A stretch of DNA of 64,000 bases from an uncultured delta proteobacterium (GTDB lineage: Bacteria; Desulfobacterota; Binatia; UBA9968), in contig CAWJZV010000034.1 of assembly GCA_963847445.1 (NCBI GenBank), positions 192,001 to 256,000 on the forward strand. Direction: 5' to 3'. The translations under genes were made by a program, and so were the position numbers. Shown here one piece after another: positions 24,818 through 34,605 of this stretch. The notes under the pieces are model-generated. The model worked only from the letters and a program-made list of their open reading frames with translations, searched no databases and was not told the origin of the DNA. Every line of letters begins with the position of its first letter. Position 1 is the first letter of the stretch.

Positions 24818-25001
24818 GCAGCCATACTGGCAAAGAAGTCATGAACGGACAAGCGCAAGGGGCAGCCGGCGATGATCCCTATAGGATCGCTCCCATGCCT
24901 TGAACCTGATGGGTGACAGGTGCGGAGGTCCAGTGGACCGCTTTTAGGTTTTTTTTCTCGCAAGGTCTTCACTTCCGCTTTTCCAGCGCTATGCTGAAAT
25001 C

Positions 25002-25142
25002 AGAAGTTGGCGACTCGATCGAGATACTCTGCTTCTTGGCATTGCCTCCCTAAGCAGAGCAGTGGGTGCGATTACAGCTTACGTGCTACTGCAACCTACC
25101 GCCGACTCAGGCGCCCTGTCACCCCGGGGCGCCTTTTTTATT
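25002..25142 (+). ncRNA. Candidate ~140-nt sRNA with intrinsic terminator
   Basis: -10 TATGCT (24990); stems 25005-12/25100-07, 25027-34/25052-59, 25062-67/25094-99; terminator AGGCGCCC/GGGCGCCT followed by a T-run. Confidence 0.5.
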
Positions 25143-25180
25143 TCACGCTCGGGTTCCGCTTATATTTTGGCAAAGGGGAT

Positions 25181-25345
25181 GTCAAAGGAACGTTGTTGAC
25201 TGGCTGGACAAACTCTTTTCACTATCTTCATCTTCGACAACATCCCTTAATTCTGCGCAGACTCCCACTGCTCAGCAGCATGTGCGCGTGATTGTCCATC
25301 AACGCCCAGACGTAAAACCGGCGTCCCCGTATTGTTGCCACGACG
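25181..25345 (-). mobile_element. Internally deleted Y1 (RAYT/IS200-like) transposase remnant 1
   Basis: Encodes TGTPV/YVWALMDNHAHMLLSSG (HUH motif NHAH); end segment shared with 27415-27480. Confidence 0.7.
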
Positions 25346-25552
25346 GCAGGCAAATTATTTTCTCACTATCAAAGTGACATCACGGATTTACTCAATGGAG
25401 TTGATATCTACAAATAAACATTACTTTATGGATGAGGGGGGGCTGGGATCAGTGGCGAGATGTACAACCAGTTTGGTAGGCATTCATGTCACTGACCTAC
25501 GCTGAATGCTCCTAATAAACTTCTTAGGCAAAAAATCGGAGAAGCGAATGTG

Positions 25553-25858
25553 CTAGGACTGACGGTCTGACACCAAACTGGATTCGATCGCGAATCCTGG
25601 ACGCATCTCGTATCGGATGAAGTAGTTATTGAAGCTGGTGTGCAACTCGAAATAAATCCGACCGTATTGGATGCGCTCGGATCTATTTGGCATGACGAGA
25701 TATTCAATCCGACGCTGATCCGCACCCGCCTCGATTAATTGATTAACCGCCTGTTGGAACACACCGCGCTTTGCGTTGTGTGCCGCTTCATAGAAATCTT
25801 TTAGGAAACTATCTTTTATAGCGGTCACCTGCTGCGCGGTTATCCAGAAATCTTGCAC
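25553..25858 (-). CDS. Hypothetical protein (101 aa)
   Basis: Open frame with protein-like composition in the low-GC islet; no motif recognised. Confidence 0.45.
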   Translation of the reverse strand: MQDFWITAQQVTAIKDSFLKDFYEAAHNAKRGVFQQAVNQLIEAGADQRRIEYLVMPNRSERIQYGRIYFELHTSFNNYFIRYEMRPGFAIESSLVSDRQS

Positions 25859-26279
25859 GTCGACCTTAATCTATTATTGAGATCGCAGGGAATTCCAAGA
25901 CAAATTGATGCCATTGCAATTTCGCGAAGCGTCGTGAGCCTTTCTTGGAAAAAAGTTGATCAAGAAACAGCTCTGAAATAACAAAGGGGGGAAAATAATT
26001 GTCAGTGTACACGATCAGGTCGAAGAGGGCACTGGTTTTTTTCGGTTTCGTGTACCTGGCTAAAGCCGAGTGCAGCTTTCATTGAGAACTAAGCGCAGTC
26101 TACGATACGCCTGAGTTCTCCTATTCTAGTCCGAGCTTTTTTCCTTGCGCGCTTGGGAACGCTATCGGCAACACAAACTAGCGTAAGCGCTGCTAACCGA
26201 TTAAGATACGCAGAACAATCTCCAATGCCTTCTCTCCGACAGATGCCGCGAAAGATCGATCGAGCGAGGAAATACCGCC

Positions 26280-26562
26280 ATGCGTATGAAGAACCCGCCC
26301 CATCCTGGGCGCATTGTTCGCCAAGAGTGTATCGAGCCTCTGGGACTGACCGTAACTGAAGCCGCCAAGCGTCTCGGAGTAATCGCGGCAGACCTTGAAC
26401 AATCTGGTCAACGGCAAGGGCTGTGTCTCGGCCGAGATGGCGGTGCGCCTTTCTAAAGCCTTTGGATCAAGCCCCGAGGTGTGGCTCGGCATGCAGATGG
26501 AATACGACCTCGCGCGAGTCGAGAAGGAAGTGGGCAACATCAAGGTTAAACGAGTTGCATGA
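26280..26562 (+). CDS. higA: HigA-family antitoxin (one frameshift)
   Basis: [10 protein letters not shown]...[53 protein letters not shown]; GAGGA RBS. Confidence 0.85.
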
Positions 26563-26722
26563 GCGCGGAGCGGTGCTCCTAGCCGGGTCCGAAATCGGGT
26601 GGCGGGAATAACCTTAGACGGCACAGGAGATCAGCACAGATGTCGTCACGGGGTGGGGGTTGACTTCTCCGGCGATGACTTATTCCTTGACCTGTAAATG
26701 GTGAAGCGAGCTGTCTTACAAA

Positions 26723-27370
26723 ATGAAAAAACTAACTCTTGCACCGGAACAAGTCCTGGCCACGGATACTTCGTTTCCAGAAGACGATCTGGCGTTTCAG
26801 ATTTACTATCGGGTGTTTGCCAAAGGCGGTGGCGTATCATTGCCGCCCATTATCGTCGGCTCGATTAAATCACCGAGCGACTGGATTGCTCGGCTGGAGA
26901 GTGGATATTCGCACCGCGAGCATAGGGACCCGGATCTAGTTCGACAGCGGCGTCGAGAATATAGGATTTTGTTTGCGAAATTGCGGGAGATTCCGTATTA
27001 CATCCTCGATGGCAATCACCGGGCCTTAGCGTCAGCTTTAAGTCGACAGCCGCTCAATGCTCTTTACCTAGAGTCCGATGCAGACCTGCTGGAAGTCGAG
27101 CGAATGGTTTCAACCGGGGATCTGCTATCTTTCCCGCATGAAGCTGGGAGTGTGGAAGAGTTAGAAGGGCAATCGATTCAACACTTTCTGAAACTCAATG
27201 ATCTTCCGCCCAATCACGCTCTCAATGCTTCAAATAAGATCGATCTCACTCCTTTGGTGTCCGTCGCGACTCGTGCATACGATTTATGTTCGAGCAACAG
27301 ATTACCGCGCTACATGGTTAAGAACTACACGGCGCGGAAGGAAGGCCGTCCAAGGATACTGCCGAGTTAA
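26723..27370 (+). CDS. ParB/sulfiredoxin-like N-terminal domain protein
   Basis: LPPIIV...YYILDGNHRALA. Confidence 0.6.
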   Translation: MKKLTLAPEQVLATDTSFPEDDLAFQIYYRVFAKGGGVSLPPIIVGSIKSPSDWIARLESGYSHREHRDPDLVRQRRREYRILFAKLREIPYYILDGNHRALASALSRQPLNALYLESDADLLEVERMVSTGDLLSFPHEAGSVEELEGQSIQHFLKLNDLPPNHALNASNKIDLTPLVSVATRAYDLCSSNRLPRYMVKNYTARKEGRPRILPS

Positions 27371-27414
27371 CCCACTCTGAGCCGATAGCGCGAGCAACAT
27401 TTGGCGGCGTGAAG

Positions 27415-27648
27415 GTCAAAGGGGACGTTGTCAACTAGCTGGACAAACTTCTTTTCAATATCTTGGACAACTTCGCTTAATGTGGGTCAACGCCCAGGCG
27501 TAAACCGGTGTCCCGGTTTCTCCGGTCAATCGCCCGAGCTGCCGCATGATCTCGTCGATCCTGTTGGTCAGCGAAGTTTCGCCGCCGCCCGATCCCGCGG
27601 ACCGTTGTGCAATGTCCCGGGACTATCCAGTCGTGCTTGCCTCGGCAT
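27415..27648 (-). mobile_element. Internally deleted Y1 (RAYT-like) transposase remnant 2
   Basis: MPRQARLDSPGTLH/VRGIGRRRNFADQQDR/GETGTPVYAWAL, then jumps to the shared end segment. Confidence 0.75.
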
Positions 27649-27739
27649 AGATTGTAACTTTTGTTTTCCGAATTTCTCCACGTTCGAGTTCGTCCAGCTA
27701 GTCAATAATTTCCACTTTGTGACAACGATTCAGGCGTTG

Positions 27740-29929
27740 CTAAATTAAGCCGGGTCTAAAAATTGCCGATGGCCTTCGATCATGGCGGCAAACTGTGCTT
27801 GCTCCGTTTACTGAAATGGTTGCGGGAAATTTAGCGCTGCTGCGGCGCCAGCGCGCTAGCCACTTGTGGTCGAGCAGTGGCGGCGCCAACGGATGCTGGG
27901 CGGCGCTTTCAGCTCGGTTGAACGCGATCGTGGTCTCGCTCTTCGGGCCGGTGCCGACCCCTTGGGCGACCCAGAAGCCGGCGCTCAGCAATGCCACGCG
28001 CACGGCGGTGGCTGCGGAGTAAGTATAGAGTTCAGCCGGTTTGGCCAGGCAGCGGGCAAATATTCTCGCGAAGATTTCCCCGGTCCACAGTGCAGCGTCG
28101 GTTTTAAATGAGAAAGGATCGTAAAAAATCAGGTCGGGGATCGCTGCGGTTTCGATTAAGTCACGAAAGTCTCCTTGGAGAAGTTGCCAATGCAGCATTT
28201 CCGATGGGTGTTGCCAGCTCCCCTGGGAGAGAATCTTCGACGGCGCGCTGTGGTGCAGGTGCGGGAAGTAGCCGGAATGTTTGGCGGCGAGGGTGAGCGC
28301 ATCGAGATCCTGCTCAAAACTGAGCAGACGCAGGGGGCGCAGGCCGGCGCGGTTATTTCCCCCGTGGCAGCGCTCGAAGCAGTGAATCGCCGCCATGGCA
28401 TTGCTGGCGGCGCCCAGGCCGACATCCCAGATGACCAATTCGTCGGAGTTGCCGTGACTTGTTTTTGACCACGCTGATTCCAGCGTGGAACCACTAAATG
28501 GGGTTTCCAAAGGGGGTTGAACATCCCCTTTGCGATATTTAATTAGCGCCGGGGTCAATACCCCGGCCGCGAAGTGACTTCGTTTATTGACTAAGCGCGC
28601 GGCGAGAGCCGACTGCTCGATGTAAAGCTGGTTGGCTTCTTCGCTCGGCGCGCTCACCGAGTGCATGATTTCGCCGGAGCTGATTTGACGAATGCTGTAA
28701 AAACCATGAACCGAGCGGTGCAGCTCATAATCGCCCAGGCGGGCCGGCTGGACGACTTTGGTTTTCTTCGGCGGCCGGATCGGATTGTCTTCATCGGCGC
28801 GCATCAGCTCGGCGCGTTTCTCGCGGTAGTACGCGGCAAAGTTGCCGGCTAAAATTCGCTCGCGCATTTCCTTCATCAGGCGATGGTAGAACGCCAGGTT
28901 GTGCATGCCCAAGAGATGCCAGCCGAGCGCTTCAGCCGATTTGATCAGGTGGTGCAGGTAGGCGCGCGAGTAATCTCGGCAGCATTGGCAATCGCAAAGG
29001 GCGTCGACAGGGTCGTCGGCGAGTTTATGAACCGTGCGGCGCAACTGCAGTTTGCCGTGGGAGGTAAAGGCGACGCCGCGTTGCGCCAGTTGGGTCGGGA
29101 TAATGCAGTCGAACATGTCGACGCCGCGATGCACCGCCTCGAGAAGATCGCTGGGCGTGCCCACGCCCATGAGATAGCGCGGCAGCTGCGCCGGCAGCTG
29201 CTCGGTGACCAGCGCGGTGAGATCGTAACGCTCGGCGTGAGTTTCGCCGACCGCGAGACCGCCGATGGCGAAACCGTCGAAGGGCAGTTCGCGCAGGAAT
29301 GCGGCGCTGATTTTTCGCAGCTGCGCATGACAGGCGCCCTGAACGATAGCGAAGAGTGCGGCCGGGGCATCGCCGCGCGCCTGCAGCGAACGTTGCGCCC
29401 AACGATGGGTCAGCTCCATGGCTGCCTGCGCTTGAGGATACGCCGCGGTGGCGGGGATGCATTGATCGAGCACCATCATGATATCGCTGCCGATGGCTTG
29501 CTGCATTTCAATGCTCGACTCTGGCGACAGCAAGTAGCTCTTGCCATCGACGTAGCTTTTGAAGTTTGCGCCGGCTTCATTCATGGCTCGCGAATGGGGC
29601 AGCGAGAAAATCTGAAAGCCGCCGGAGTCCGTCAGCACCGGGCCAGGCCAATTCATGAAGCGGTGAATGCCGCCGAATTTCTTGAAGACTGCGGCGCCGG
29701 GACGAAGCAGGAGATGATAGGTATTCGCCAATAACAAGCGCGCGCCGGTTGCTTGCAAACTTTCCACGGTCTGCGCTTTGACCGTCGCCTGGGTGCCCAC
29801 CGGCATGAAGATCGGCGTTTCGACGGCGCCGTGCAGCGTTTGAAAGGTTGCCGCGCGGGCCCGGGAGCCAGGCGAACCGGCTTCCAGAGTGAACTGCAAT
29901 CGGGGGTTGTCGCGCGGTGAATTTACCAT
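27740..29929 (-). CDS. tgt: tRNA-guanine transglycosylase fused to an MnmC2-type SAM methyltransferase
   Basis: FMPVGT, NTYHL, DSGGFQ, GGLAVGE, YLMGVG, DMFDC, CxCxxC..H; C-terminal WDVGLG, SFE, GDF, FYDPFS, TYSAA..R..L..AGF. Confidence 0.9.
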   Translation of the reverse strand: MVNSPRDNPRLQFTLEAGSPGSRARAATFQTLHGAVETPIFMPVGTQATVKAQTVESLQATGARLLLANTYHLLLRPGAAVFKKFGGIHRFMNWPGPVLTDSGGFQIFSLPHSRAMNEAGANFKSYVDGKSYLLSPESSIEMQQAIGSDIMMVLDQCIPATAAYPQAQAAMELTHRWAQRSLQARGDAPAALFAIVQGACHAQLRKISAAFLRELPFDGFAIGGLAVGETHAERYDLTALVTEQLPAQLPRYLMGVGTPSDLLEAVHRGVDMFDCIIPTQLAQRGVAFTSHGKLQLRRTVHKLADDPVDALCDCQCCRDYSRAYLHHLIKSAEALGWHLLGMHNLAFYHRLMKEMRERILAGNFAAYYREKRAELMRADEDNPIRPPKKTKVVQPARLGDYELHRSVHGFYSIRQISSGEIMHSVSAPSEEANQLYIEQSALAARLVNKRSHFAAGVLTPALIKYRKGDVQPPLETPFSGSTLESAWSKTSHGNSDELVIWDVGLGAASNAMAAIHCFERCHGGNNRAGLRPLRLLSFEQDLDALTLAAKHSGYFPHLHHSAPSKILSQGSWQHPSEMLHWQLLQGDFRDLIETAAIPDLIFYDPFSFKTDAALWTGEIFARIFARCLAKPAELYTYSAATAVRVALLSAGFWVAQGVGTGPKSETTIAFNRAESAAQHPLAPPLLDHKWLARWRRSSAKFPATISVNGASTVCRHDRRPSAIFRPGLI
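28469..28582. repeat. Four tandem hairpins inserted in frame in the tgt fusion
   Basis: CCACGCTG/CAGCGTGG, CAAAGGGG/CCCCTTTG, GCCGGGG/CCCCGGC, CGAAGT/ACTTCG. Confidence 0.65.
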
Positions 29930-29941
29930 GGGTCGGATTAT

Positions 29942-30085
29942 CTCTCGCAAAGGCGCCAAGGCGCGAAGTTGACGGGCGGATGCCCGTCATCCGGAGCGAA
30001 CGCGAGGGATCTAAGAGAGATTTCTCCCTTCGGTCGCAATGACATCCCTTCCGACCTTGGCGTCTTTGCGCCTTGGCGAGAGGAA
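29942..30085 (-). repeat. ~140-nt composite palindromic element, copy B (inverted)
   Basis: Reverse complement aligns by eye end to end with 21629-21768. Confidence 0.8.
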
Positions 30086-30224
30086 CATCCGAATCTCGAT
30101 CCTGTCTGAAAATTCGCGCATATCGCATCGTATCACTGGTTGGCGCACTGGCGCGAGGGGCGTTCTTGTGTCGGCCACGGCGCCTAAGGTATAAATTTTA
30201 CTCGATTGAAGGAGAATGCTTGCC

Positions 30225-31482
30225 ATGGCAAACGCGGAAATCGTCGCGATCGGTTCGGAATTGCTGCTCGGTCAGATCGTCGATACCAATTCGGCCTGGA
30301 TGGCCCAGCGGCTCACTGCGCTGGGGGTGAATTTATATTTCAAATCGGTGGTCGGGCGATAATCCTGAGCGCATGAAGGAAGTGATCGCGCGGGCGGTGG
30401 AGCGCGCCGACATCGTTATCACCAGCGGCGGCATCGGGCCGACCCAGGACGATTTGACTCGCGACATCGTCGCCGAAGTCACCGGTCGCAAACTGGTTCA
30501 AGACGCCGGCATGCTGGAGCAGGTCGAAGGCCACTTTCGCCGGCGCGGCCGGCCGATGACGCCCAACAATCTGCGCCAATCCTATATGCCGGAGGGAGCG
30601 ATCCCGGTGAAAAACCCCAACGGCACGGCACCGTCCTTTGTCGTCGAAGATCCGCGCGCCGTGGTTTTCTCGTTGCCCGGCGTGCCGGTGGAGATGAAAT
30701 GGTTGTTCGAAAACGAAGTCGAGCCCTATCTCAGAAAGAAGTTCAATCTCGCCGAGGTGATTCACTACCGCGTGCTCAAGATCGTCGGCATCGGCGAGAG
30801 CGCGGTGGACGATAAGGTCGGCCACTTGATCGCCAACTCAAGCAATCCAACCGTCGGCGTGCTGGCGTTACCCGGCCAAGTCGACGTGCGCATCGCCGCC
30901 AAGGCGGCCAATCGCGCCGAGGCGATGAAGATGATCGCACCGGTGGAAGCCGAGGTGCGCGAGCTGTTGGGCACGGCGATCTTCGCCGCCGACGAAGAAA
31001 CCATGGAGGTTGTCACCGGCCAATTGCTGCGCGAAAAAAACCACACCGTGGCGGCGTGCGAGGATCTCACCTGCGGTCAATTGGCGGAGCGCCTGCAGAC
31101 CGCCGGCAATGAGAACTTCGGCGCCGGCTTTATTTGCAATAACGAAAATGCCCTGCGCTCATTACTGAAAAACGCGCGCAGCGGCATAAATCTCGACGCG
31201 ACTTTAAAAGATCCAACCGCGCTTACCGACGAAATGGCTTGGGCGGCGCGCCAACAGTCCGGCTGCGATTTCGGCTTGGCGCTGCACGCCATCGCCGATC
31301 CCGACAGCAAGATTCAAAATCTCGCGCGCGGGCAGACCTATGTTTCGCTTACCGACGGCAAGACTTTTCTCAGGCGTGAAAGCACCAGCGCCGGCCGCGG
31401 CGCCTACGACCGCTCGCGCATGACGCTCAGCGCCATCGATTTGCTCAGAACGGCGTTGTTGGAAGGGATGAATCAGAAATAG
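30225..31482 (+). CDS. cinA: CinA-like protein (MocF/COG1058 domain + degenerate PncC domain), frameshifted
   Basis: [43 protein letters not shown]. Confidence 0.85.
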
Positions 31483-31530
31483 TTGCGTGCGCAAATTTTC
31501 TTAGCCCCGAACATCTCGGAGTCGGGTATT

Positions 31531-31676
31531 CCTCGCGCCAAGGACGCCAAGGTCGCAATGTTCGGAATCGTTGTCATTTCGACCCTTGGGAGGAATCTAT
31601 CTTCGATCCCTCGTGCTCCCTCGGGGTGACGGGCATAGGCCGTCACCTTTGCGAGCTTTGCGTCTTTGCGGGAGAT
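31531..31676 (+). repeat. ~140-nt composite palindromic element, copy C
   Basis: GCCAAGGACGCCAAG..GTCATTTCGACC..GATCCCTCG..CGGGGTGACGGGC..CTTTGCGTCTTTGCGGG. Confidence 0.75.
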
Positions 31677-31741
31677 AATTCCGAGTTTTCGGTTTTCGGC
31701 TGTGTCGCTCTCGGTCCTTGGTGGTGAAAAACTCTTGTCCA

Positions 31742-33547
31742 CTAGTTTTGCATAGTCAGTTTCGGTAACAGCGCTTGCAGTCGGCTGAGTGGCTCTTCCA
31801 AGCTCTGGATCGCTTCGCTCCAGAATTCAGTTTTCTCGATATCTCTGCCGACGGTTTGTCGCACGACATTCTCCGCCGTGTCGCTGCCGGCGCGGCGCAG
31901 GAATTCTTCGTATTTAGGCAGAAAACATCGCCTTCGTTTTTGAACATGGCGTAGAGGCCGCGGCTGAGCAGATAGCCGAAGGTGTAGGGGAAATTGTAGA
32001 AGGTGATGCCGGTGATGTAGAAGTGCAGCTTTGACGCCCAGAAGTAGGGATCTTCGCCGCCGGTTTCGAGCACGTCGCCCAATAACGCGTCGTTGCGTCT
32101 GCCACCATCAGTTCTTTCAGTCGCGACACGCTGAGCGGCCCTTTGGCTCGTTCTTCGTAAAAAGATTTTTCAAACTCGATAGCGCACGGGAATGTCCAAC
32201 AAGTAGACCGCGCCATGGCCGACTTCGATGTCGAGGATACGCGCTTTGTCACTGTCGCTGACCGTCGGGTCGTCGAGGATGCCGTTCATCAAGACATTTT
32301 CGCCGAAGGTCGACGCGGTTTCCGCCAGCGTCATCGGATAGCCGCGGGCGTAGGGACGGACGTCGCGCATCATGGCGCCGTGATAGGCGTGGCCCGATTC
32401 ATGGGCGAGGGTCAGCACATCGCCGAGGGATTCGTTGTAGGTCATGAAGATGCGCGATTCTTTGCTGAGCATGGAGCTGGTGCAAAAACCGCCGGGCCGT
32501 TTGCCCGGGCGCGGCTCCCAATCGACCCAGTTCTTGCCGATGACCTGCTCGGTGAAGAATCTTCCCAGCGCGGGTAGGCGCGGCTAAACGACTGCGGCGA
32601 CGGTGGCTTGGGCTTTGTCCCAAGACAGTTTCCCGTGATCCGGCAGATCGAGGGGCGCGCCGAGATCGAACCAGGCGACCTGCTGGCGCGCCATCGATTT
32701 GGCTTTTAGTTGGAGAATACGCCGCGGTATTTCCAGGTTCGCCATCAGCGCCTCGAACATGGCGTCGAGGGTCTTGCGCCCGATCGCGGCTTGAAAAAGC
32801 GCGATGTCGAGAAAGTGATCGACGCCGCGGTGGCGATTCAGTGTCAGCCGTGTGCCGGCGATGGCGTTGAGGGCGGCGGCGGCGGTGTCTTCGACGCTTT
32901 GCCAAGCCGCGTTGCCGCCTTCGAAGGCGGCTTGGCGCACACGCCGGTCGGGATCGTCCATCAACGAGCGGCGTTGCGACATCGGCAAACGCGCGCGCTT
33001 GCCGTCGGGATAGACCATGTCGAATTCTAGTTTGGCAGACACCGTATCGTAGAGCCGGCCCCAGGCCTGGATGCCGTCGATGCCCAAGTCGGTGGCGAGG
33101 ATTTCTTTTTCCGCCGTCATGGCGCGGCGCGCTTCTTCGCGCAGGCGGGTCAGATAGTTCTGCGCCCCAGCCAGTGCGGGACGGGCGCAGAATGCCGCAA
33201 AGACTTTGTCATCGGCGCTCTTGCAGGCGCGCAGCAGTTCGATTCTGCACTTTAGCGAGCTCGGCGCGGGTGCGGCTGAGCTCGGCTTCTTCTTTCTGAT
33301 AACCCTCGTTGCGCGCGTCGGATGAAGCCAGGCAACCGATGTAGGAACCGAGGTGCGACATGCGGCGCGACAGGTCTTCGTTGCGCAGGAGAATATCTTC
33401 CCAGTCTGGTGCCGATTGCGCAGTAAGGGCCGGTAAACCAGCGGCGGTTGCTGCAGCGCAGCGACATCGGCGCGGATGGCTGTCTTTGAATTGAACCATT
33501 TCGGCGCCGTTAAATTCAGGAAAGTAACTCGTCAGGTCCCAGGTCAT
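31742..33547 (-). CDS. pepF: Oligoendopeptidase F (M3B), multiple frameshifts
   Basis: TWDLTSYF, AWGRLY, TLAHESGHAYH, LAETASTFGE, FYNFPYTFG. Confidence 0.9.
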
Positions 33548-33626
33548 GGCGCCTCCGCGCGGTTTCGGGTTGCGGGTTCCGAGTCCCGGCACCGAATCCG
33601 TCGAGACTGCAACCTGCGATCACTAC

Positions 33627-34605
33627 TCAAATTTCCACATCGGTGCCGACGTTCCGTTCCAGTGCCTTGCGATAAACTAATTGCGCCGTGGCGACATCTT
33701 GAATGGCGATGCCGACGGATTTGTAGAGTGTGACTTCACTCGGGCTGCTTCGTCCCGTCTTGGCGCCGGCGAGGACTTCGCCGATCTCGCCATGGATATC
33801 GGCTGCGCCGATGGACTGTTCTTTGAGCGCGAGCAGGATGTCGCCACACTCGGCCATGATCGCTTCGCGCGAGTCGACGACGACCTTGGCGCGTTTCAAT
33901 GTCGCGCCGTCGATCTCGCGCAGATCGGGACGGTGCGAGCCGACGGCGTTGATGTGGACGCCAGGCTTGAGCCATTCGGCCTGGACGATTGGCTCTTTGG
34001 CGGTGGTTACCGTCACCAGGAGATCGCTGTCGCGTACCGCAGTCTTGCGCCGAATCGACGACTTCGATTGGGATGGCGCAGGGCTTTTCCAAGTCTTGTT
34101 TAATACTGCGCGCGCTCTTTCCCGACGGACTGTAGAGCTTGATACGGCTCAACTGGCGCACCCGGGTGAGGGCTTGAATATGGGCGCGCGCCTGCACGCC
34201 GGCGCCCAGGATTCCCAGCACCGGCGTGTCGGGGTTCGCTAAGGCCCTCGTCGCCAGCGCCGAGGCGCAGGCGGTTCTGATCGCGGTGATGTAGCCGCCG
34301 TCCATGGCGGCGATCATTTTGCCGGTGTCGCTGCTGAACAACATGATGGTGGCGAGGATCGCCGGCAGATTTTGCTTGGGATTGTCTTGAAAGTAGGTCA
34401 CGACTTTCATGCCGAGGGCTTTATCCTCGTTCAAATATCCCGGCATGCTGGTGATCCGTCCTTGGATTTGCGGCAGCGGCACGACCAAGCGCACCGGCAT
34501 GACCGCCTTGCCGGTGGAATATTGGATATGCGCTTGTTCCAGTGCGGCGATCAGTTCGTCGATGTCGATCAAACTCTGAACTTGTTTCTCGGACAAAACC
34601 AGCAT
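33627..34605 (-). CDS. Ornithine cyclodeaminase/mu-crystallin family (frameshifted)
   Basis: ITAIRTA, GAGVQA, HINAVG, KSVGIAIQD. Confidence 0.9.

Follow-up and report, generated by a model that had tools for sequence, protein, structure and literature searches.

Queuosine and 5-methylaminomethyl-2-thiouridine (mnm5s2U) are among the best-studied wobble modifications of transfer RNA (tRNA), with pathways that are regarded as charted in all essentials. MnmC2 methylates the aminomethyl group of 5-aminomethyl-(2-thio)uridine (nm5(s2)U) at tRNA position 34. In MnmC the two domains are packed against each other although about 45 Å separates their active sites, and the features for catalysis and for binding of S-adenosylmethionine (SAM) comprise Glu-101, Asp-178, the Gly66-Gly70 loop and Pro-182, the last being more than 98% conserved in bifunctional MnmC (PMC3648344). 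In phage DNA, N-methyl-preQ1 (mdPreQ1), the methylated form of 7-aminomethyl-7-deazaguanine (preQ1), arises through DpdM, which belongs to the DUF3109 family and has an unrelated fold; the deoxynucleosides of preQ1 and of its methylated form have m/z 296.1 and 310.1 (PMC10516641). The corresponding ribonucleosides would be expected at about 312.1 and 326.1. Fusions of TGT with MnmC2 are listed, uncharacterised in the available text, in the 2023 preprint ‘Alternate routes to mnm5s2U synthesis in Gram-positive bacteria’ (bioRxiv 10.1101/2023.12.21.572861). Here we analyse such a fusion gene on a stretch of 64,000 nucleotides (the window) from an uncultured delta proteobacterium of the Binatia (GCA_963847445.1, contig CAWJZV010000034.1, positions 192,001 to 256,000), whose genome is denoted G000. 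The fusion is real, common and already catalogued; what appears new, judging from sequence comparison, is that it is consistently an accessory paralogue, spread horizontally and changed in its RNA-contact residues, an aspect of which we found no description in the literature searched. The fusion duplicates a housekeeping step of both wobble pathways, is kept under strong selection beside the originals and moves between phyla. Since the duplicate steps are kept and the gene crosses phyla, it is a candidate for a branch of 7-deazaguanine chemistry in RNA that would be new.

Both domains stand in the protein with their catalytic residues intact, the Tgt half is a paralogue of the housekeeping enzyme, the two halves stay linked, and the gene is distributed patchily across phyla. 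Because the halves are strictly linked, strongly constrained and, in some hosts, both redundant with housekeeping enzymes, they may act in sequence on one nucleotide. The reading that we favour, with a probability of roughly 0.4, is that the fusion would be an accessory enzyme that inserts preQ1 and then N-methylates it, with RNA substrate, acceptor atom and product presumed to be as follows. The N-terminal half, a specialised and catalytically complete Tgt paralogue, would exchange a guanine, most likely G34 of tRNAs with GUN anticodons, for preQ1. The C-terminal MnmC2-type domain, held on a tether of about 25 residues, would then use SAM to methylate the aminomethyl nitrogen of the inserted base, and the product would be 7-(methylaminomethyl)-7-deazaguanosine (N-methyl-preQ1). 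The order might also be reversed, with the free base methylated first and inserted later, which would give the same product. MnmC2 carries out such a methylation on nm5(s2)U at this very position of tRNA, and N-methyl-preQ1 of phage DNA offers a precedent for the product. The redundancy pattern lends this proposal indirect support, and the consistent paralogue status together with the altered RNA-contact residues raises the odds that the fusion has a distinct function.

The gene is one open reading frame (ORF) on the minus strand, 739 amino acids long when counted from a TTG codon at 29959; the first ATG of the same frame, at 29929, gives a protein of 729 amino acids without internal stops (27740..29929, protein P0001). 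The original prediction had described a single uninterrupted frame of about 730 amino acids with a full bacterial Tgt followed by an MnmC-type SAM domain, and the ORF, Pfam and NCBIfam all confirmed this. Its parts are:

27740..29959, minus strand: the fusion's full open frame, from TTG at 29959 (29929 if read from the first ATG)
28811..29863, minus strand: Tgt domain, residues 23-373 (Pfam TGT; TIGR00430; E 7e-108 to Z. mobilis Tgt chains)
29078..29092, minus strand: class-specific segment Q-L-A-Q-R, residues 280-284 (R286-x-x-R289-N290 in canonical Tgt)
28730..28810, minus strand: linker, residues 374-400 (partly of low confidence in the full-length model)
27812..28729, minus strand: MnmC2-like SAM methyltransferase domain, residues 401-706 (Pfam, NCBIfam, alignment, model, Foldseek)
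28457..28582, minus strand: insertion, residues 450-491 (alignment gap; predicted local distance difference test score, pLDDT, below 50; X19 contig)
28406-28429, minus strand: motif I of the methyltransferase half, WDVGLGAA
28109-28123, minus strand: YDPFS motif of the methyltransferase half
27740..27811, minus strand: C-terminal tail in the assembly, where the frame has probably shifted (contigs against the family consensus)

No stop codon lies between the domains, a flaw that the original prediction had considered. Contigs from three other metagenomic runs (X2 record 22, X5 record 26 and X19 record 13) span the junction at 28732-28804 without a gap, in a comparison made with assembled contigs rather than raw reads.

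The status of the fusion as an additional gene emerged from 37 carrier genomes, among which G031 (the genome of locus L069) was counted once, with its family. A second tgt locus was present in 37/37, with queA adjoining the canonical copy wherever both were seen, and a Tgt of the fused type lacking the methyltransferase half was found in 0 of the 37. In the window's genus the fusion is carried by 9 of 19 genomes (G000, G002, G003, G004, G007, G008, G009, G014 and G015), a count that includes the unpublished G005 as one non-carrier, on which the conclusions do not depend. Seven of these nine have an intact canonical tgt (frame of about 376-411 amino acids) directly beside queA; in G000 the canonical tgt is in frameshifted pieces and in G009 it is represented by a fragment only. 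The five distant carriers (genomes of L069, L020, L012, L082 and L080) all encode a canonical Tgt and QueA besides the fusion, and a canonical Tgt was likewise found in 16/16 carriers from the family of G031 (61 genomes) and, with queA alongside, in 8/8 carriers from the family of G096 (25 genomes). Both tgt genes lie on one contig in G015, G038 and G039, and many fusions are located deep inside long contigs, so mis-binning does not explain the pattern. QueG was identified in 26/31 relatives and QueH in 0/31. Neither QueG (PF08331) nor QueH (PF02677) was found in the whole genome of G000, where the missing QueG is probably an assembly gap and not a true absence. Since QueF, QueA and QueG accompany the fusion in the lineage, it is additional to queuosine synthesis. 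Hence the suggestion that the fusion provides an alternative to queuosine is not supported; the profiling against queA and a second tgt that had been proposed along with it revealed the canonical pair in the carriers. In these genomes the fusion is never the housekeeping Tgt, and it is always an extra paralogue.

The methyltransferase half is redundant as well in some hosts. Of the 25 genomes in the G096 family, 21 encode a bifunctional MnmC that exceeds the equivalog cut-off, 7/8 carriers among them, and in the eighth carrier (G105) MnmC is in two adjacent pieces. The genuine MnmC proteins of G096 and G098 reach 243.7 and 212.2 bits on the NCBIfam MnmC2 model NF033855. The fusions of this family are nevertheless intact despite the presence of MnmC, and between G096 and G098 they have drifted apart to 78% identity. 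Thus both halves seem to duplicate functions already encoded in the G096 family and also in G035, the genome of L080 (a locus labelled Oligoflexia). G035 contains two standalone paralogues of about 275 amino acids (L105:587-1435 and L106:819-1637), 32-34% identical end to end to the fused domain, and hence three copies of one MnmC2-like type, all of which score about 70 bits on the MnmC2 model.

The Tgt half matched Pfam TGT over residues 23-373 (E 1.2e-141) and scored 436.4 bits on the Tgt(34) equivalog TIGR00430 of NCBIfam, above the cut-off of 306.75. A Pfam scan of the fusion at E<=0.1 returned TGT and Methyltransf_30 only, with no match to DUF3109, the family of DpdM. With residues numbered by alignment to Z. 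mobilis Tgt, we take Asp102 and Asp280 to be the catalytic pair, Asp156, Gln203, Gly230, Leu231-Ala232 and Glu235 to form the base pocket, and Cys158 and Val233 to mark the preQ1 type. The motifs previously noticed in the window, DSGGFQ, LDQC, GGLAVGE and CxCxxC...H, are all present and correspond to D102, D156/C158, G229-E235 and C318/C320/C323/H349. The Cys and Val of the preQ1-inserting pocket, on which the original prediction had relied, are found in the window and are canonical in all 76 fused Tgt domains compared, in which D102, S103, D156, C158, Q203, G229-G230-L231-A232-V233-G234-E235, Y258, M260 and D280 are invariant (100%), as are the zinc ligands C318/C320/C323/H349, also present in the window. 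In the protein of the window the Tgt nucleophile is D274. With every catalytic, preQ1-pocket and zinc residue in place, the Tgt half looks active.

The fused Tgt domains are 43-49% identical to canonical Tgts and differ from them at positions that are nearly fixed within the class. E157Q, R174L, H127Y and N290R (R284 in the window) occur in 100% of the 76 fusions, G69A and R286Q (Q280 in the window) in 97% and R289Q (Q283 in the window) in 87%. Among 16 canonical Tgts, on the other hand, R286 and R289 are each conserved in 100% and N290 in 88%, and both arginines are found in Z. mobilis too, so that where the conserved segment is PTRxxRNG the window has PTQLAQRG, with R286 and R289 replaced. 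Some positions that separate the fused from the canonical set are not specific more widely, as A49 and H332 occur also in Z. mobilis. R289 presumably lies beside the site of ribose 34 and phosphate 35, as does R286. For Arg286 a position at the ribose-34/phosphate-35 pocket of Tgt is described (PMC5395182), in the one passage on the role of R286 and R289 that the literature searched contained. By alignment, E157Q, R174L, R286Q, R289Q and N290R would all lie near the site of nucleotides 34 and 35.

The C-terminal half matched Pfam Methyltransf_30 (PF05430) over residues 557-669 with 58.7 bits (E 7.1e-16; gathering cut-off 22), and on NF033855 the fused domain scored 66.9 and 69.1 bits, below the equivalog cut-off of 136. 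Its predicted structure (residues ~401-706) had a pLDDT of 84.8 and a predicted template modelling score (pTM) of 0.84, and the nine best Foldseek matches were all MnmC2 or MnmC chains (E 3e-12 to 5e-10), followed by spermidine synthases at about 4e-7. The modelled fold is thus of the MnmC2 type, and together with the kept counterparts of Glu-101 and Asp-178 in E. coli it bears out the MnmC-type SAM domain of the original prediction. Motif I, the acidic residue of SFE (Glu-101 in E. coli), the D of YDPFS (Asp-178) and the GxGxA loop are kept, whereas the equivalent of E. coli Pro-182 is replaced by Phe (YDPFSF against LDGFAP) and KNPxxW is changed to KTDxxLW. The aspartate of YDPFS is D604 in the protein of the window. 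The AlphaFold model of the full-length protein had a pTM of 0.55, against 0.84 for the C-terminal domain by itself, with pLDDT below 50 for segment 388-392; it predicts no confident rigid packing between the domains and is neutral on whether the halves are coupled.

Searching protein clusters with the C-terminal half gave 2021 that matched at E<=0.001 (8000 candidates scored), and both Pfam domains were present in all 120 clusters among the matches listed, most of which are named only ‘queuine tRNA-ribosyltransferase’ or ‘Tgt’. The guess that such fusions already sit in databases uncharacterised was therefore right, with respect to these clusters and to the listing in the available text of the 2023 preprint. 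In contigs representing one genome per species, 591 candidate stretches encode a relative, and in each of the 80 retained the match to the query runs almost from one end to the other. The labels of these 80 read Opitutaceae and other Verrucomicrobia, Binatia, ‘Deltaproteobacteria’, Syntrophobacter, Riflebacteria, Oligoflexia/Bdellovibrionota and some Proteobacteria. Carriage is patchy at close range, with 9/19 genomes in the window's genus, 16/61 in the family of G031 and 8/25 in that of G096. A tree built from 76 fused and 16 canonical Tgt domains placed the fused domains in one clade (76/76, support 0.87) on a stem of 0.67 substitutions per site. Across phyla the fused Tgt domains are 66-77% identical, as against 44-54% for the canonical Tgts of the same genomes. 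When the ORFs of 81 loci (the 80 and the window) were clustered, no conserved neighbour was found, the commonest cluster other than the fusion occurring in 6 loci. The fusion gene of the window is a single transcription unit between a convergent and a divergent gene. Because cross-phylum identity is high, carriage patchy, conserved neighbours lacking and the gene a unit of its own, the comparisons point to an accessory gene that has spread horizontally; strong purifying selection by itself seems a less likely explanation of the high cross-phylum identity. Among plasmid and phage records, 72 and 20 were retrieved by tblastn, none of which covered >=80% of the query, and all were Tgt-only with less than 60% identity. 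A search for split or standalone forms matched 771 shorter proteins, most of them fragments on contigs of 1-3 kb named ‘partial’, and standalone proteins of the same methyltransferase subfamily do exist (L105, L106 and P0233).

Several points weigh against insertion and N-methylation of preQ1 by the fusion. The sole characterised substrate of the MnmC2 fold is nm5(s2)U34, and since the full queuosine route coexists with the fusion, its product would compete with QueA. In the literature searched N-methyl-preQ1 is not reported from RNA and is found only as the phage DNA base mdPreQ1. No confident domain packing was predicted for the full-length protein, and in G000 itself the canonical tgt is broken up by frameshifts that only presumably go back to assembly indels. 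Moreover, the fused domain could be the sole enzyme of its lineage that converts nm5 to mnm5, that is, simply its MnmC2: in the window's order MnmG was identified in 29/31 genomes and MnmM in 0/31, in the window's genus Methyltransf_30 occurs only within the fusion, and four of the five distant carriers also lack another clear Methyltransf_30. The standalone proteins of the subfamily indicate in addition that a domain of this type can work without a fused Tgt. These last observations favour two independent wobble activities, with the Tgt half making preQ1-tRNA that is finished by QueA and QueG and the other half serving as an ordinary MnmC2 that converts nm5(s2)U34 to mnm5(s2)U34 in other tRNAs. 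The fold and the closest solved relatives are indeed those of MnmC2, and the available text of the preprint files the fusion among MnmC2 fusions (bioRxiv 10.1101/2023.12.21.572861). However, two independent activities would not account for a second conserved Tgt that is always attached although the housekeeping tgt-queA pair is kept (37/37 carriers), nor for the upkeep of the fusion where a genuine bifunctional MnmC is present, as in the G096 family; the domain also reaches only 67-69 bits against the MnmC2 cut-off of 136 and lacks Pro-182. The combination of two position-34 activities, which the original prediction had offered beside its main proposal, is weakened by the retained housekeeping Tgt and by the MnmC of the G096 family; it stays a rival that we consider unlikely, though one to be taken seriously. 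Were the protein a plain Tgt joined to an MnmC2, lineages would gain mnm5s2U by acquiring it and the automatic annotation of the whole protein as ‘Tgt’ would need correction.

The halves might also be coupled and act elsewhere, on another guanine (a different tRNA position, another RNA or DNA), on a different 7-deazaguanine or on the amine of queuosine or epoxyqueuosine. The replacement of R286 and R289 and the change of N290 to R only in the fused class, together with the likewise class-specific E157Q and R174L, would fit such a target, as would a paralogue that is not redundant with canonical Tgt, and Tgt relatives acting on DNA are described from phages and bacteria (PMC10516641). Yet the Tgt half scores as a Tgt(34) equivalog with 43-49% identity to canonical enzymes, C158 and V233 of its preQ1 pocket are canonical, neither Dpd-like nor other conserved neighbours were found at the 81 loci, and no phage or plasmid match was full-length; we therefore regard a different target or acceptor as doubtful. 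That the gene is a redundant duplicate without a role of its own, or an artefact of assembly or binning, is very improbable and largely refuted. The G000 assembly is indeed prone to indels, with its canonical tgt, its mnmG and several genes of the window broken into pieces, and most of the carriers seen are metagenome-assembled genomes. The frame of the fusion, however, is intact both here and in the 2021 matching clusters, and contigs assembled in other studies cross the domain junction. The gene is embedded in long contigs, which in three genomes carry the canonical tgt as well, and its catalytic residues are invariant. Returning to N-methylation of inserted preQ1, it is conceivable, at somewhat less than even odds, that the fusion places N-methyl-preQ1 in GUN tRNAs at the wobble base, or else at a different guanine picked by the altered RNA-contact residues, and that this would be an RNA modification not yet on record. 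It would then belong to an accessory trait that bacteria of soil and freshwater hand on horizontally. Such a trait would draw some of the tRNA away from queuosine and, speculatively, might tune decoding or blunt anticodon-directed nucleases.

Two parts of the copy in the window deserve comment. Relative to the frame of the window, one base is missing at 27804 in X2 and at 27811 in X5, and the alternative frame from 27804 yields the conserved C-terminal pattern of the family, ending at a stop at 27745-27747. For these two reasons the last ~22 codons of the frame in the window are probably displaced by an insertion of one nucleotide near 27804/27805. The 42-residue insertion (residues 450-491) is missing from most family members in the alignment and is predicted to be disordered (pLDDT <50). 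In the X19 contig, from a metatranscriptome library, bases 28455-28591 (137 bases) are skipped and replaced by five others with the frame kept, so this contig would represent a relative without the clade-specific insertion; run X19 being an RNA library, it covers parts of the gene with contigs of relatives, which is no demonstration of transcription.

The canonical tgt of G000 lies on contig C14 (C14:24338-25380), adjoining queA, in four pieces in frames -1/-2/-1/-3, each 84-94% identical to the Tgt of a congener, and its breaks are presumably assembly indels. Within the window, CinA (30373-34605 region) begins at profile position 47 of its first domain, a gene resembling M3 oligopeptidases is in at least four ORF pieces (31756-33592), and one resembling ornithine cyclodeaminase is split (33627-34605). 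Such frame breaks are typical of uncorrected long-read indels, and pseudogene claims from this one genome are unsafe. A 215-amino-acid ORF convergent with the fusion (26723-27367, plus strand) and a nearby one of 101 amino acids (25556-25858, minus strand) had no Pfam match at E<=0.001. The G+C content is 0.60 over the fusion gene (28001-30000), compared with 0.54 in the 4 kb at lower coordinates and 0.58 on the other side, which is mildly consistent with a foreign origin. No riboswitch or other RNA element was detected at E<=1 in positions 25000-33000 of the window; among 10 of the 80 loci, which total 139,833 bases, no RNA element reached the gathering score, and promoter and terminator scans gave signals at chance level.

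Among the systems described, the TGT/MnmC2 group of the preprint (bioRxiv 10.1101/2023.12.21.572861) has the same architecture of PF01702 with COG4121/MnmC2, and the window protein is a member of it; in the available text the group appears next to four other MnmC2 fusions, and nothing is said there of its function, its status as a paralogue or its distribution. The canonical Tgt of Z. mobilis (PDB 1OZM/1ENU) resembles the N-terminal half over the whole domain (E 7e-108), with the catalytic, preQ1-pocket and zinc residues kept, whereas the fused Tgt belongs to a separate clade with E157Q, R174L, R286Q, R289Q and N290R, is never encoded beside queA, is always additional to canonical tgt and is always joined to a methyltransferase. 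For the C-terminal half the closest matches in sequence (E 4e-5) and fold (Foldseek E 3e-12, TM score 0.63-0.74 on the target) are MnmC2 and MnmC, and standalone MnmC2 has a similar N-terminal strand segment; the fused domain differs from them in an identity of only 17-23%, a score below the equivalog cut-off, the replaced Pro-182 and a conserved C-terminal extension, W..RW.RS..K.P, and it is joined to Tgt instead of the MnmC1 oxidase. The phage enzymes DpdA2 and DpdM differ from the fusion in that their target is DNA and that DpdM is encoded by a separate gene and is a DUF3109 metal-cluster protein with a CxxxCxxCC motif and an unrelated fold (PMC10516641). Nevertheless, they follow the same logic as proposed here for the fusion, a Tgt-family enzyme inserting preQ1 whose aminomethyl nitrogen is then methylated (PMC10516641).

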